From the IMG/VR virus record IMGVR_UViG_3300045988_134649: 55,170 nucleotides of DNA; one strand, written 5' to 3'. Both the position numbers and the translations under genes were made by a program. Under the pieces are notes generated by a model. The model had not been told where the DNA came from. It did no database searches and was given only the letters and a program-made list of their open reading frames with translations. Shown in pieces: positions 5,254 to 49,933 of this stretch. The first letter of the stretch is position 1. Each line of letters opens with the position of its first letter. Origin of the DNA: a virus.

Positions 5254-5774
5254 TCCTCGAACCTTAAATCGTTAATCCGATTCATCCACCCCCGTTTGAA
5301 TTTATTGTTCGCCGGACGTTTTTTGCATATATCCTCGATGAAGTCGAACCGTGCAATCTTAATCATGTCGAACAACTCACGAGGATTCTTGGCATTCACC
5401 GCGGCAATGGTCTTGGGACCAACAATGCCATCCACAGTAACACCAAGCAAACGTTGAGGAATCTTGATGCCATGTGCACCCGATGCCCACACCCAATCGA
5501 CAAGGATATTCGCCACAGACTGGCTCGTTATCAAATCGGCTTTCCATCTGTCCCAATAATGCGGCTTGAGCACCCGTTTAACGACATCCTCACGGGTAAG
5601 CAGACGCAGGTCATCCACGTCTATATCACCGTCACCGTCCTTGTCATAGCCGCATGACTTCCACGTACCGATAGTCACACCCATATTCGTAGCACCTCCA
5701 AGGTCTGCCGGGTCATTCACGAAACCGCCTTCCCATTTTAGGATAAACGGTGCAAGTTGATTCACATTCGCCAT
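5250..5774 (-). CDS. Endolysin, GH108-type muramidase with PG_binding_3-like C-terminus
   Basis: [28 protein letters not shown] is the GH108 N-terminal signature. [14 protein letters not shown] is a peptidoglycan-binding motif. Confidence 0.85.
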
Positions 5775-5796
5775 TTCAATTTTCCTCCTTATTCAA

Positions 5797-6138
5797 TTAA
5801 TACCCATTTTGCGGTTCTCTATCACCGCACTTCTTTCTCTCACACCGTTTCAGTGCCAGTTCCAGTTTCAGGTCAGAATTAGCCTCCTTCAGTGTAAACA
5901 GCTCATCCTGTGCCTTACGGAGCCGGTCAGTCTGCTCCACAAACCGCTGTTCCTTCTTCGAAAGCTGCTTCTGAAGGAACTCGTTGTACTCCCGTAATGC
6001 CTTGAACTCCTCGACATCAGCATGTGCGTCCTCAATACGCGCGTTGGTCTTACGGGACATCCACCACTTGATAAGCTGCTTGATGCCCTCGATGCCACCG
6101 AGTGCGGTCACCAACATAACCCAATCATTCATATCCAT
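5797..6138 (-). CDS. Holin or lysis-associated TM + coiled-coil protein
   Basis: Single N-terminal TM (WVMLVTALGGIEGIKQLIKWW) followed by a coiled coil. Immediately upstream of the endolysin. Confidence 0.45.
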   Translation of the reverse strand: MDMNDWVMLVTALGGIEGIKQLIKWWMSRKTNARIEDAHADVEEFKALREYNEFLQKQLSKKEQRFVEQTDRLRKAQDELFTLKEANSDLKLELALKRCERKKCGDREPQNGY

Positions 6139-8590: not shown

Positions 8591-8807
8591 GTATTGTTAA
8601 AAGAGGATTTTGCCTTATATTAATGAAAATGAATGCAATATTGTTGCGCAATCATTCTGGTATCAATTTTGTACTATGGTTTATGTCTTAAAAGTTATCA
8701 GTAACTTGTAGTTGTTATGGTTAGGCAATAGGTATTAGTTGCATTAAGGTTTAAAGACATTTTGTTCATATTGATTTTCATTCGGAAACTCTCTTTGTTT
8801 GGCATTG

Positions 8808-8840
8808 CATCCCGGTCTGTGAAGTATCGGGATGTTTTTA
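8808..8840 (+). terminator. Hairpin + T-run inside the shufflon spacer
   Basis: CATCCCG (8808-8814) / CGGGATG (8828-8834) followed by TTTTT. The loop carries the CGGTCTGTGAAG motif. Confidence 0.4.
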
Positions 8841-9129
8841 CTTAGATGGTTGCTGTTTCCGACTAAATACTGTAACTTTGTATAGTTAGCCGATATACTA
8901 CTTAACTAATACTATTTTATTCTTTGGAATAATGAAAGTATTCTCGGTCTGTGAAGATCGGATGCTTTTGGTGGGTAATGCCGCCAATTATTCCAGTTAA
9001 GTGTTTAGGTTTTATGCAGTCTACCCCATGAATGGACTGCATTGACAAGAAGTATTCTGCCCGTTCTGACCGAGATGGCCGGAACGGGCATAACCAGAAT
9101 GAAAATCCACATGGCTTGCAGAACCACTA

Positions 9130-30049: not shown

Positions 30050-30332
30050 ACTATTTTACGTTACGAAAATAAAGATACCGAATAATCCACGAACGGACTA
30101 TTCGGCATCAAAGAAGTTACTGACACGATTTGGCAGAAGATTTTGCTTTAGCCAGCAATACCTTAAATAAATCCCAACCTTCAATTTAACAATTACACCG
30201 TTAATGGTTAACAAGTACATTTACCAGCTAAACCATGTTATAAGATGGCTGAACAAAGGCTCATAATTTGCACAACTCCCACAAAACCGTACCTTTGCAA
30301 TGTGTTTTTCATAGTATTAGATTAAGGTTAAT

Positions 30333-30369
30333 AAAAAAGATTGGCTGTCTGGGAAGATAGCCTTTTTTT
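30333..30369. terminator. Bidirectional terminator-like hairpin between the early and late blocks
   Basis: GGCTGTC (30343-30349) / GATAGCC (30356-30362), flanked by an A-run (30333-30338) and a T-run (30363-30369). Confidence 0.55.
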
Positions 30370-30396
30370 GTAACCATTGGCAATATCTTTTCTTTA

Positions 30397-47675: not shown

Positions 47676-48597
47676 ACCTTTTGCTGAGTTTGTTAAACTT
47701 CAAGCCAAGTCTCTTGCACTTCTCATTGAGCATCATGCCTGCCCGTACCTTGCTGTCAAAGATATGCGTCATGGTGTCTAAAGCTTCCCGAACAGAATTG
47801 GCAGATTGTGTATCAGTCACTTGTTCCACTGCGTCACGGATAGCATCAAGAACTGCATCATATTCGGAAGATAGTTCCGTCTGCTTCGTCTGATACTCCT
47901 TATAAGTACTGATGATTTTCGTCATGAAATCATTCTCACCCGTTACGGTACCGGACTCATCAATGATAACGGGTATCTTGATACGAGAAGGAAGATTACA
48001 AGTATTCTTCCCGTAGAACTTCTCGCACGGGTCAAAAGAAATAGTTCTATCTTTACCGATAGCTTCCATGTAACCAACCAAATCCAACTCCTTAATCAAA
48101 TCACCGGCAGATGAGCCACCAATCTCCGGACGTATCTGTTTTTCGTCGCCTACTTTCTCCTCCCGTTCATGAGCCACGAAGATAACAGACTTGCCCATGA
48201 GGGTTACTTGGTTAACGAAGTTGATGAACATGTTCTTACGTACTCCGTAGCCTTGCAAAGAAAGGGTACCATCCGCTTTCTTCATCTTCGGATTCGCTGC
48301 CATAATCGCCTTATCCATAAAAGAAAGCATCTTTCCGGCAGTATCAATCACAATAGTGGAAAACTCCTTGATTTCTTCGGACGAAAGTACCTGGTTCGTC
48401 TCGTCCCAGCTTGTAATCTGGACGGTCGGTACACGATGGGCGGCATTGACACGGTGAATACCGCCGTCATAATCGAACAATACCGGATTGGGAGCCGATA
48501 ATGCAAGAGTTGTTTTTCCCATGCCAGGTTGGCCGTAAATCAGTGCTGACAAGGTAGTCTTAACGGTCAGCTCGTTAGGTCTTTTGATAAGTCCCAT
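47659..48597 (-). CDS. Sak4-like / AAA_24-type recombination ATPase
   Basis: Start at MGLIKRPNEL (ATG 48597). Walker A IYGQPGMGKTT. Walker B-like IVIDTAG. Confidence 0.65.
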   Translation of the reverse strand: MGLIKRPNELTVKTTLSALIYGQPGMGKTTLALSAPNPVLFDYDGGIHRVNAAHRVPTVQITSWDETNQVLSSEEIKEFSTIVIDTAGKMLSFMDKAIMAANPKMKKADGTLSLQGYGVRKNMFINFVNQVTLMGKSVIFVAHEREEKVGDEKQIRPEIGGSSAGDLIKELDLVGYMEAIGKDRTISFDPCEKFYGKNTCNLPSRIKIPVIIDESGTVTGENDFMTKIISTYKEYQTKQTELSSEYDAVLDAIRDAVEQVTDTQSANSVREALDTMTHIFDSKVRAGMMLNEKCKRLGLKFNKLSKRYEPAA

Positions 48598-48621
48598 AAT
48601 AGAAAATATTAAAGTGGTTAA

Positions 48622-48666
48622 TAAAAAAATAGCCAAAGGAAAGCCCCGAAGCGTATTCTCCGGGGC
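48622..48666 (-). terminator. Rho-independent terminator closing the tRNA-like cluster
   Basis: Minus strand: GCCCCG (48661-48666) / CGGGGC (48643-48648) followed by TTTCCTTTGGCTATTTTTTT. Confidence 0.6.
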
Positions 48667-48812
48667 GCAAACGACAAATACTCCTAATCCTATCCGATTT
48701 CGCATTACCTTTCAGATAGAGTCAACGGCTAACCGATGCCGCGCGGATGATTCCCTGCGCTATCTTCGCCCTACTCTCGGACTAAAAGCGGATTTTCTCT
48801 CATAAAGGCTTG

Positions 48813-48943
48813 TAGAAACGGATGGATTCGAACCACCGACCGCCGCTTGTGGTGCTCTCCCATTAAGCTAAGAATCTACTTGAGAGAATCGAACTCTCAA
48901 CCTTCCACCACACACGGTGCTCTATCCACTGAGCTACGTTCCC
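48813..48943 (-). ncRNA. 131-nt tRNA-like 'dumbbell' RNA (outer tRNA scaffold plus inner permuted tRNA-like domain)
   Basis: Hand fold:
- Acceptor GGGAACG/CGTTTCT (G1:U72 and G3:U70 wobbles), then A73.
- D arm GCTC-AGTGGATA-GAGC.
- 12-bp helix CCGTGTGTGGTG (48906-48917) / CACCACAAGCGG (48843-48854) replaces the anticodon arm.
- 51-nt insert containing TGAGAG-TTCGATT-CTCTCA and a D-arm-like AGCTTAATGGGAGAG.
- Variable loop CGGTC.
- T arm GGTGG-TTCGAAT-CCATC. Confidence 0.6.
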
Positions 48944-49037
48944 AGAATAGGTGAACTATTTTCACAAACCGTTCACCTTGAAACACAAACAAAAAATAAA
49001 ACACGACAAAACTACTAAATAACCCTCTCTTGGATTG

Positions 49038-49105
49038 TGGACGTTGACGGACTCGAACCGCCAATCTCCTCAAATGAGTTGTGTTAGCCATTACACCGAA
49101 CGCCC
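49038..49105 (-). tRNA. Compact 68-nt tRNA-like gene (non-canonical, candidate UUG loop, no variable loop)
   Basis: Acceptor GGGCGTT/AACGTCC (G3:U70) then A73. D arm GTGT-AATGGCTA-ACAC. T arm GGCGG-TTCGAGT-CCGTC. Only 18 nt lie between the D and T stems. The best anticodon hairpin is (A)ACTC-ATTTGAG-GAG(AT). Confidence 0.5.
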
Positions 49106-49196
49106 ATATTTGCCTACCATATCTTCACAGACCGGGCAGGCAGGTCAACAAAGTTGCTCCCGGATAGGCGGTCAAGCCACACCGGGATAGTCACTT

Positions 49197-49257
49197 AAAA
49201 CAAAAGCAAAATAAAAACTTAAATGAGGACTCTCACCTCACGTTGTCCTTTACAACG
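49197..49257 (-). terminator. Hairpins + U-run downstream of the 114-nt tRNA-like gene
   Basis: Minus strand: CGTTGT-aaagg-ACAACG, then TGAGG-TGAGAGT-CCTCA, followed by TTTAAGTTTTTATTTTGCTTTTGTTTT. Confidence 0.5.
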
Positions 49258-49286
49258 GAATTATAGATTAAACAATAAAAAGCTTG

Positions 49287-49400
49287 TGGACAATGCGGGA
49301 TTTGAACGCCGCGACCTGTACATGAAACCTTTAAACAATACCATGACAAATTACCAATACTAACTACATGTACCGCTCTACCAAGCTGAGCTAATTGCCC
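49287..49400 (-). tRNA. tRNA-Ala-like gene with a 42-nt AU-rich insertion in place of the anticodon loop
   Basis: Hand fold:
- Acceptor GGGCAAT/ATTGTCC (G3:U70), then A73.
- D arm GCTC-AGCTTGGTA-GAGC.
- 7-bp helix GTACATG (49367-49373) / CATGTAC (49318-49324) enclosing 49325-49366.
- Variable loop AGGTC.
- T arm GCGG(C)G-TTCAAAT-CCCGC with one bulged C. Confidence 0.6.
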
Positions 49401-49633
49401 GTGTCTGTCCCTGCTCTCACGAGTAGAGACAACTCCCATGTCTAATTCTAAATCAATCTAATTATGTGTGAAACACTTCCTCCGCTGAGGTCTATATCTT
49501 GAACACCTTTTTCAAGACATTGTGATAAAACCAATACGAATACACAAGGCCAAAAAGGTTTATACCATAATTCCAGTCTCCCGTTACCGAGTCTACATCA
49601 TTAAACATCAATAAACATGGTAGTGCCAATACG

Positions 49634-49933
49634 TTAAGCAGTAGCACGTTTATAATGATTCTTCTTTTCATTGTTCTTTCCCTTTCTTACTTTTGCAAAG
49701 CTCAACACATCCGAAGCATTGTAATAGCTTCTCCCATTAGATTTATACTCAACTCTCACTCTTTGAGTATTTACCAACACTCTTAACCTGCCCGGACCTC
49801 CTACTATTTTTTCAGATTCTCTCTTTGGAAAAGTGCGAGAATCCATAATAGTGAGGATGTCTGCCAATCTCGCCTCCGCTGTCCCGTCAATCAACATGGA
49901 ACTGCGTAAATCACCATTCACTTCGTATATCAT
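49634..49933 (-). CDS. Hypothetical basic protein
   Basis: 99-aa ORF, last gene of a three-gene minus-strand unit upstream of the tRNA-like cluster. Confidence 0.45.
   Translation of the reverse strand: MIYEVNGDLRSSMLIDGTAEARLADILTIMDSRTFPKRESEKIVGGPGRLRVLVNTQRVRVEYKSNGRSYYNASDVLSFAKVRKGKNNEKKNHYKRATA

Follow-up and report, generated by a model that had tools for sequence, protein, structure and literature searches.

Transfer-messenger RNA (tmRNA) is charged by alanyl-tRNA synthetase (AlaRS). The mascRNA of the long noncoding RNA MALAT1 and the tRNA-like RNAs of murine gammaherpesvirus 68 have defective anticodon arms, and the host's RNase P, RNase Z and CCA-adding enzyme use them to release the RNAs that neighbor them. 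In the engineered "tRNA scaffold", a foreign RNA takes the place of the anticodon loop, so that the chimera gains the processing and the stability of a tRNA. Plant mitochondrial t-elements, non-canonical cloverleaves with a conserved T arm, lie in longer transcripts beside coding regions, and their excision by RNase P and RNase Z with C/A additions has been proposed (PMC1920247). Here we describe three tRNA-like units (units 1, 2 and 3; Table 1) clustered on the minus strand of IMG/VR virus record IMGVR_UViG_3300045988_134649 (55,170 nt; this whole stretch is referred to as the window), the genome sequence of a temperate Bacteroides phage that is common in the human gut. We favor, at about an even chance of being right, the reading that they are non-decoding tRNA-like small RNAs, each a tRNA scaffold with a conserved cargo, for which charging is likely in this lineage but accessory.

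The t-element is the closest precedent for the mechanism that we propose. The phage units share with it the features listed above, the excision and the C/A additions being predicted from sequence on the phage side; unlike t-elements, they have conserved cargo in the place of the anticodon loop, an enrichment of G3:U70 in the acceptor stem, a preceding GUGA-tetraloop hairpin, and a tandem arrangement without genes. They resemble the tRNA-like domain of tmRNA in their acceptor with G3:U70 and A73, their T arm, the absence of an anticodon and a helix leading away, but they have neither pseudoknots nor a tag reading frame, are 68-131 nt long (tmRNA, 260-400 nt) and keep a full D stem, and G3:U70 is not universal in the phage family. 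Unit 1 is similar to YrlA (RF02553; PMC4201824) in that an inner T arm and then a D arm are closed by a long helix, forming a permuted tRNA-like module of a type known also from some phages (PMC4201824). However, unit 1 has no acceptor-like hairpin between the two arms and no identified Ro-binding motif, and its helix joins a complete tRNA body. The mascRNA and herpesvirus units are likewise tRNA-like with a defective anticodon arm, but they are eukaryotic and are not known to be aminoacylated or to have conserved cargo in that arm. The 3' tRNA-like structures of plant RNA viruses are also viral tRNA mimics that retain aminoacyl-tRNA synthetase identity elements without decoding; those structures are 3'-terminal, pseudoknotted and specific for Val, His or Tyr, whereas the phage elements are internal cloverleaf genes in double-stranded DNA with an alanine set. 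The tRNA scaffold is a laboratory design, of which the phage elements would be a natural counterpart.

Detection and architecture of the units

When searched in sensitive mode over positions 48400-49900, the Rfam tRNA covariance model (RF00005, gathering score 29 bits) matched all three units above its gathering score, with boundaries identical to those that a first-pass annotation had drawn by folding the minus strand by hand. An Rfam search with default filters returned a single partial tRNA match (48813-48877, 31.1 bits), and ARAGORN found no tRNA and no tmRNA in the whole window. The RF00005 alignments place 69, 0 and 45 nt where the anticodon loop would be. Every unit has a 7-bp acceptor stem, a D arm and a T arm with a UUCRANY loop, as the first-pass annotation had described, and the alignments and the pair counts among homologues agree on these elements. 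The acceptors, read directly, are also the same as those given there: GGGAACG/CGTTTCT-A in unit 1, GGGCGTT/AACGTCC-A in unit 2 and GGGCAAT/ATTGTCC-A in unit 3. All three thus contain G3:U70 and A73, together with G2:C71; CAA directly follows A73, so that CCA is not encoded in the window. An R15:Y48 Levitt pair can form in each elbow: unit 3 and the outer elbow of unit 1 offer G15/C48, and unit 2 and the inner module of unit 1 offer A15/U48.

No unit has a 5-bp stem closing a 7-nt anticodon loop (U33 plus anticodon), and a 7-nt loop is missing from every homologue too. Unit 2 has no spliceable insert; units 1 and 3 have inserts that are better conserved than their scaffolds. The proposal that these are not ordinary decoders therefore stands and, judged by their sequences, the units cannot decode codons.

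The replaced regions differ among the units. In unit 3, a 7-bp helix closes a 42-nt insert, just as first described. Unit 2 had been credited with a missing variable loop, but its variable loop (AGAUU) is intact and it is the anticodon loop that is missing; its arm is reduced to a mini-hairpin, ACUC-AUUU-GAGG, with a 3-4-bp stem whose register is fixed because most homologues have CCUC-AUUC-GAGG. Position 8 of unit 2 is a C, where tRNAs usually have U. The claim of an aberrant anticodon region consequently holds for all three units, with this one detail changed. For unit 1, the long helix with an insert was confirmed, and its dimensions were refined from 12 bp and 51 nt to 11-12 bp with a G.A mismatch, closing ~52 nt. 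Within this insert lie a T-arm-like hairpin and a sequence, UAGCUUAAUGGGAGAGC, that both the tRNA and the YrlA models align as a D arm. The minimum free energy fold of unit 1 is the nested structure (z -2.17), and RNAalifold gives the nested fold independently.

Conservation of folds, cargo and the 3:70 pair

Homologues were collected from IMG/VR with exact patterns from each unit and, by an independent route, through the neighboring ATPase protein. They are present in more than 200 gut-phage contigs, in the cultured Bacteroides phage BS-TP3 and in one Bacteroides isolate. Unit 1 is represented by 16 distinct sequences, in which 100% of 576 cells are paired, with 10 compensatory pairs; unit 3 by 22 (99.4% of cells paired, 8 compensatory pairs); and unit 2 by 20 (98.8%, 2 compensatory pairs, located at 4:69 and in the T stem). 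When the partners were slid by 1-3 columns as a control, pairing fell to 26-57% for every unit. The helices therefore covary among homologues instead of decaying, the outcome on which the first-pass annotation had staked its folds, and the comparison indicates that the folds of all three units are real, beyond chance. The RNA strand is the minus strand, because read on the plus strand the G.U pairs would become A.C mismatches.

In units 1 and 3, the compensatory changes all fall in the scaffold (acceptor, T arm, D arm and helix base), and the insert, or cargo, is nearly invariant and better conserved than the scaffold around it. Two loci retrieved with the unit 2 pattern (L146 and L163) hold the unit 1 cargo unchanged, and the unit 3 core UUUGUCAUGGUAUURUUUAAAGGUUUCAU is kept in the ATPase-derived loci despite differing acceptor and T stems. 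Because it is seen in these loci, the conservation of the cargo is not merely an effect of retrieval. BS-TP3 has the same scaffold but a different, 44-nt insert.

The bacterial alanine identity set comprises A73, G2:C71, G3.U70, G4:C69 and G20, with no anticodon element (PMC9976931). The units hold the first three of these determinants (A73, G2:C71 and G3:U70) and are without G4:C69 and G20. To place the 3:70 pair among the other acceptor pairs, canonical tRNAs were removed and two elements of the same genomic slot (L046 and L034, read by eye) were added, giving 39 distinct acceptor-stem haplotypes. Position 3:70 is a wobble in 16 of the 39, compared with 15 of 234 at the six remaining stem positions; of the 23 haplotypes with a 5' G at position 3, 16 place U opposite it, compared with 10 of 122 such cases elsewhere. 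All but one of the 39 haplotypes (38) have A73, and the first trailer base is C in 41 of 41 haplotypes of our scanner table (described below); some unit 2 homologues encode ACCA. G3:U70 is kept while pairs 4:69 to 7:66 change on both sides, in stems such as GGGCGUU, GGGAGUU and GGGCGUG in the unit 2 lineage and in five different stems in unit 1. The first-pass annotation had judged three occurrences out of three unlikely to be chance, and the wobble census bears this out: as far as acceptor sequences can tell, the recurrence of G3:U70 is not chance but a position-specific enrichment. Plain wobble drift, an idea suggested by the G3:C70 pair of most unit 3 homologues, was dropped after the position-specific census.

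The wobble is nevertheless not fixed in any of the families. Counted over distinct sequences, position 3:70 is GU in 17 and GC in 3 for unit 2; GC in 17 and GU in 5 for unit 3, where G:U occurs only in the lineage of the window and in one other variant; and GU in 11, GC in 3, AU in 1 and CG in 1 for unit 1, with A3:U70 also in a Bacteroides metagenome-assembled genome (MAG). Listed per locus in the order unit 3, unit 2, unit 1, the combination GU/GU/GU is found in 67 loci, all of the lineage of the window; the others are GC/GU/GU (8 loci), GC/GU with no unit 1 (76) and GC/GU/GC (2), and 2 further loci, in which unit 3 is absent, combine GC in unit 2 with GC in unit 1. The G3:C70 and A3:U70 alleles should, from their sequences, abolish recognition by AlaRS. 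Because every orthologous family has alleles that are predicted to be uncharged and carry the same cargo, alanine acceptance cannot unite the family. The first-pass reading of the units as alanine-accepting mimics is accordingly kept in two respects, that they are non-decoders and that their identity set is non-random, but not in taking alanine acceptance as their defining or essential property. BLAST of the insert-less unit 3 and of unit 2 against E. coli genomes gave no match, and BLAST against phage tRNAs gave generic matches only (Pro, Thr, Cys, Arg, Lys), so that no descent from tRNA-Ala emerged from these comparisons.

The wider family and its genomic setting

A GUGA-tetraloop hairpin stands immediately upstream of each unit (Table 1). 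The slot of the unit 3 hairpin is occupied in relatives by the canonical GGUCUGUGAAGAU hairpin. The unit 2 hairpin is 81-91% conserved in otherwise unrelated phages, where it precedes different tRNA-like elements; its stem covaries, and its G.U pairs are consistent only with a minus-strand RNA. Upstream of unit 1, the hairpin reads UUU-GUGA-AAA compared with UCU-GUGA-AGA elsewhere, a compensatory change. In related phages, a GUGA hairpin with the core GGUCUGUGAAGAU is found 5-14 nt upstream of almost every element, and the core variant GGUUUGUGAAAAU is again a compensatory change relative to it. The hairpin often comes directly after the stop codon of the upstream open reading frame (ORF) and is sometimes followed by a U run, and many elements in relatives end 20-35 nt ahead of the next start codon. 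GUGA hairpins also occur at two plus-strand positions in the window, followed by terminator-like U runs, and the hairpin core (exact or with 1 mismatch) is found 6 times in the window compared with 1.6 expected.

Over 2.2 Mb of related loci, a scanner requiring a T arm, 7/7 acceptor pairing and a D arm yielded 104 distinct elements. ARAGORN called few canonical tRNAs in these loci (Phe-GAA, Arg-TCT and Gln-TTG) together with several "tRNA-???" with 2- or 4-base anticodons. The same genomic slot is filled in different phages by a unit 2-like element, by an 86-nt G3:U70 element (L046), by a minimal element (L034) in which one hairpin replaces the D and anticodon arms, or by a tRNA-Leu-like element. 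The tRNA-Leu-like elements have a class II D arm (GCGGAAUUGGUAGACGC), A73 and the acceptor GGUGGUA or GGAGAAG, with A:U or U:A at 3:70; their anticodon loop is deleted or replaced by at least 100 nt of unrelated sequence. The "tRNA-???" elements have a 4-base (tgcg) or 2-base (ca) anticodon, and one of 69 nt in L135 carries the acceptor of unit 3 of the window (GGGCAAU/AUUGUCC, G3:U70) on a different body. A DUF2693-FD RNA (RF02926, 58.8 bits) lies in L001 in a large structured noncoding region beside tRNA-like elements, and a DUF2693-FD-like sequence is found upstream of unit 2 homologues in L170, L178, L195 and L148.

The RNA cluster occupies a noncoding stretch of ~890 nt (49491-48598) inside a minus-strand operon, with the three units in tandem on the same strand as the flanking genes and no gene between any two. 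The operon runs from a LuxR/GerE-type regulator and small ORFs through the RNA cluster to an AAA_24 ATPase and, as judged by a scan of the neighboring proteins, SNF2 helicase, VRR-NUC, PcfK, DUF3268, PcfJ and methylase genes, which places the RNA stretch between early regulator genes and replication/recombination genes. Among the 20 neighboring proteins scanned, there is no tRNA-related enzyme, no aminoacyl-transferase and no SmpB-like protein, and no TROVE/Rsr domain either, the scan being limited to those 20 and not covering the rest of the window. An intrinsic-terminator-like hairpin lies ~35 nt before the likely start codon of the ATPase gene. From comparison with relatives, this start is most likely the ATG at 48597 (MGLIKRPNE), not the ORF-list start at 48705. 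The terminator hairpin recurs, at 94-100% identity, downstream of the tRNA-Leu-like elements of phages that otherwise differ, and its position so near the ATPase start suggests read-through control or a promoter with a very short leader. A scan for sigma-70 promoters with a tool that does not cover Bacteroides promoters gave no more matches than in shuffled sequence.

The closest cultured relative of the phage is BS-TP3, and homologues of unit 1 are also found in the isolate genome of Bacteroides sp. GD17 and in one Bacteroides MAG; for these reasons we take the host to be Bacteroides. Elsewhere in the window, Rfam identified FopS (70.8 bits), a Bacteroidetes family of paralogous small RNAs, with a terminator hairpin (GGCUGUCUGGGAAGAUAGCC) similar to the GUGA hairpins that precede the tRNA-like units. 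Two further motifs lie between the units. Motif B is a two-tier hairpin whose stems covary (CCCGG/CCGGG vs CCUAG/CUAGG and GGC/GCC vs CCG/CGG, in BS-TP3, L003, L134 and L136), and it is found upstream of the ATPase gene even where relatives carry no tRNA-like unit. Motif A, a pair of adjacent small hairpins, is kept in BS-TP3 and in the L089 and L134 types and has no Rfam match.

Table 1. Features of the RNA cluster, of the rest of the window and of related loci
Feature	Sequence	Coordinates	Strand	Details
Unit 1	window	48813-48943	-	131-nt nested tRNA-like RNA; Rfam tRNA 43.9 bits; outer acceptor, D and T arms normal
Unit 1 long helix replacing anticodon arm	window	48917-48907 with 48853-48843	-	11-12 bp, one G.A mismatch
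Unit 1 inner T-arm-like hairpin	window	48899-48881	-	UGAGAG-UUCGAUU-CUCUCA, perfect
Unit 1 inner D-arm-like sequence	window	48868-48854	-	UAGCUUAAUGGGAGAGC, after 10-nt linker
Hairpin upstream of unit 1	window	48949-48978	-	AGGUGAAC-GGUUUGUGAAAAUA-GUUCACCU; ends 5 nt upstream of unit 1
Unit 2	window	49038-49105	-	68 nt; Rfam tRNA 43.2 bits; acceptor, D, variable and T parts normal
Unit 2 anticodon arm	window	49079-49068	-	mini-hairpin, 4-bp stem and tetraloop
Hairpin upstream of unit 2	window	49113-49144	-	CCUGCCUGCCCGGUCU-GUGA-AGAUAUGGUAGG; ends 7 nt upstream of unit 2
Unit 3	window	49287-49400	-	114 nt; Rfam tRNA 40.2 bits
Unit 3 acceptor stem	window	49400-49394 with 49294-49288	-	A73 at 49287
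Unit 3 D arm	window	49391-49375	-
Unit 3 T arm	window	49312-49295	-	one bulged base
Unit 3 7-bp helix	window	49373-49367 with 49324-49318	-	GTACATG/CATGTAC
Unit 3 insert	window	49366-49325	-	42 nt, G+U-rich, almost no C; closed by 7-bp helix
GUGA-tetraloop hairpin upstream of unit 3	window	49406-49431	-	ends 5 nt upstream of unit 3
Intrinsic-terminator-like hairpin and U-rich tail	window	48633-48666 (hairpin 48666-48643)	-	closes noncoding cluster
Motif B	window	49156-49190	-	UAUCCCGGUGUGGCUUGACCGCCUAUCCGGGAGC
Motif A	window	49224-49258	-	CGUUGU-AAAGG-ACAACG and UGAGG-UGAGAGU-CCUCA
Further GUGA hairpins	window	about 8800-8835; 8935-8965	+
FopS small RNA	window	30302-30372	+
DUF2693-FD RNA	L001	385-433
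tRNA-Leu-like	L001	about 5745-5960
tRNA-Leu-like	L039	8632-8779
tRNA-Leu-like	L088	2368-2471
tRNA-Leu-like	L002	about 555-722
tRNA-Leu-like	L158, L194, L197, L204
"tRNA-???"	L134	102-183
"tRNA-???"	L135	968-1049; 1337-1405
"tRNA-???"	L136	77-158
"tRNA-???"	L218, L255

Proposed mechanism, alternatives and implications

Each unit retains the upper half of a tRNA: the 7-bp acceptor stem followed by A73 and C74, the T arm, and a D arm that can form the R15:Y48 Levitt pair. The parts that all members share are those recognized by RNase P, RNase Z, the CCA-adding enzyme, EF-Tu and AlaRS, and the parts that have been replaced are those that these proteins ignore; AlaRS and leucyl-tRNA synthetase (LeuRS) do not read the anticodon. 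We infer a route in which the noncoding stretch would be transcribed with the minus-strand operon and host RNase P would cleave every 5' end, leaving an upstream RNA that ends in the GUGA hairpin. The 3' ends would be matured by RNase Z or exonucleases and the CCA-adding enzyme. The products would be stable and tRNA-shaped, and the conserved cargo would be their working part: a 42-nt single-stranded G+U-rich loop in unit 3, the long helix with a second T-loop module in unit 1, and the bare elbow in unit 2. AlaRS, being blind to the anticodon, would charge all three units in this lineage through G2:C71, G3:U70 and A73. Charging may be accessory to the core function, for example by letting the RNA be taken for tRNA-Ala and so gain stability or bind EF-Tu. 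We regard a scaffold with conserved cargo as the most economical account because of the upstream hairpin, the nearby downstream start codons and the conserved cargo.

Several points weigh against this account. The exact-match patterns used for retrieval lay inside the elements, so that the apparent invariance is partly by construction, and the Fisher p of the 3:70 census (~1e-7 to 1e-9) ignores phylogeny and therefore makes the enrichment look stronger than it is. If the cargo is what matters, a fivefold enrichment of G3:U70 needs a reason, and the suggestion of stability is speculative. Two competing registers, the D-arm-like GCUU/GAGC and the YUCUU/GAGAG chosen by RNAalifold, fit the second inner hairpin of unit 1 equally, the only changes available there being Y to Y opposite G. 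Finally, no target for the cargo emerged in the window: with both of its strands as targets, RNAduplex gave background energies for the unit 3 loop and for the unit 1 insert, and an exact or 3-mismatch search for antisense targets found only the complements of the elements themselves.

The aminoacyl group may instead be what the function needs, with the units as alanine-accepting mimics whose Ala-RNA acts outside decoding: it might supply its aminoacyl group to a transferase, sequester EF-Tu or AlaRS, lure a defense enzyme that targets charged tRNA or the acceptor end, or enter the ribosome in the manner of tmRNA. We consider this a real but minor possibility. It would account for a wobble frequency at 3:70 far above the 6% of the other stem positions, for a G3:U70 that outlasts its neighboring pairs, for the near-constant A73 and the C74 of every element in the scanner table, and for the CCA encoded in some homologues. 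The other large class of elements in the slot is tRNA-Leu-like, and LeuRS is likewise blind to the anticodon; moreover, all three units of this very abundant lineage have the set. On the other hand, G3:C70 or A3:U70 alleles are found in all three families with the cargo unchanged, and alanylation by itself is insufficient because it leaves these alleles, predicted to be uncharged, unexplained. The minor determinants G4:C69 and G20 are absent when the units are compared with the published table (PMC9976931), the 20 neighboring proteins scanned include none of the partner enzymes, and the units show no tmRNA features. A more elaborate version, which we find doubtful, would have chargeable, anticodon-less phage tRNA mimics built on Ala and Leu types, the aminoacylated form acting outside decoding, with unit 1 a two-elbow dimer mimic that bridges two elbow-reading partners. 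Membership of the tmRNA family itself, a step beyond the tmRNA-like function raised by the first-pass annotation, did not survive: neither ARAGORN nor Rfam returned a tmRNA match, the units are too short, and the brief ORF-like frame within the unit 3 insert varies in length among homologues.

It is unlikely that the units are pure processing signals, comparable to bacterial t-elements or tRNA punctuation, which would only recruit RNase P and RNase Z and whose excised RNA would be functionless, the cut leaving a hairpin-capped upstream RNA and a short leader on the downstream mRNA. The many elements of relatives that follow a stop codon and hairpin and lie shortly before the next start codon suit this idea, as does the interchangeability of bodies within a slot, where only the parts needed for processing are common to all members; plant mitochondrial t-elements provide a precedent (PMC1920247). 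But punctuation alone is insufficient because the conservation of the cargo, the most conserved part of the units, and the enrichment of G3:U70, which is irrelevant to RNase P and RNase Z, would be unexplained, and the units of the window stand in tandem without intervening genes in a cluster with its own terminator. That the units are genuine tRNA genes with introns, or tRNA pseudogenes in decay, is very improbable. ARAGORN in intron mode does force a tRNA-Val(CAC) on unit 1 and, once its threshold is lowered, also a tRNA-Asn(GTT) on unit 3, and related phages have the few canonical tRNAs named above (Phe, Arg, Gln). These forced calls were rejected as leaving no credible anticodon loop: in units 1 and 3 the helices continue for 7-12 bp up to the insert, with no room for a 7-nt loop with U33, and unit 2 has neither an insert nor an anticodon loop. 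The inserts, in addition, are far below the size of group I introns and are better conserved than the supposed exons, and 98.8-100% pairing, many compensatory changes and hundreds of contigs exclude decay. That unit 1, at least, is a YrlA-type Y RNA bound by a Ro60/Rsr protein, a reading related to the Y-RNA-like function suggested in the first pass, is scarcely credible. Its inner part does present a T arm and then a D arm within a long helix, and the YrlA model matches it weakly (22.6 bits, E 0.06). This score is far under the gathering score of 69, the 20 neighboring proteins scanned include no TROVE/Rsr protein, and the helix ends in a complete tRNA body instead of free 5' and 3' ends; dimeric tRNAs are false positives of the YrlA model according to its authors (PMC4201824).

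We found no prior description of these RNAs in the literature searched. Standard annotation misses them, with nothing from ARAGORN and one fragment from default Rfam, yet hundreds of phage contigs from the human gut contain them. The nested unit 1, whose architecture, a tRNA with an anticodon arm that ends in a second T-loop module, is unusual, could be studied in BS-TP3 and Bacteroides sp. GD17. If a scaffold with cargo is the correct reading, the units would be a natural example of the tRNA scaffold and a bacterial or phage counterpart of the organellar t-elements. The position-specific retention of an AlaRS determinant in RNAs that are predicted not to decode raises the question of whether phages make charged tRNA look-alikes, and what for.

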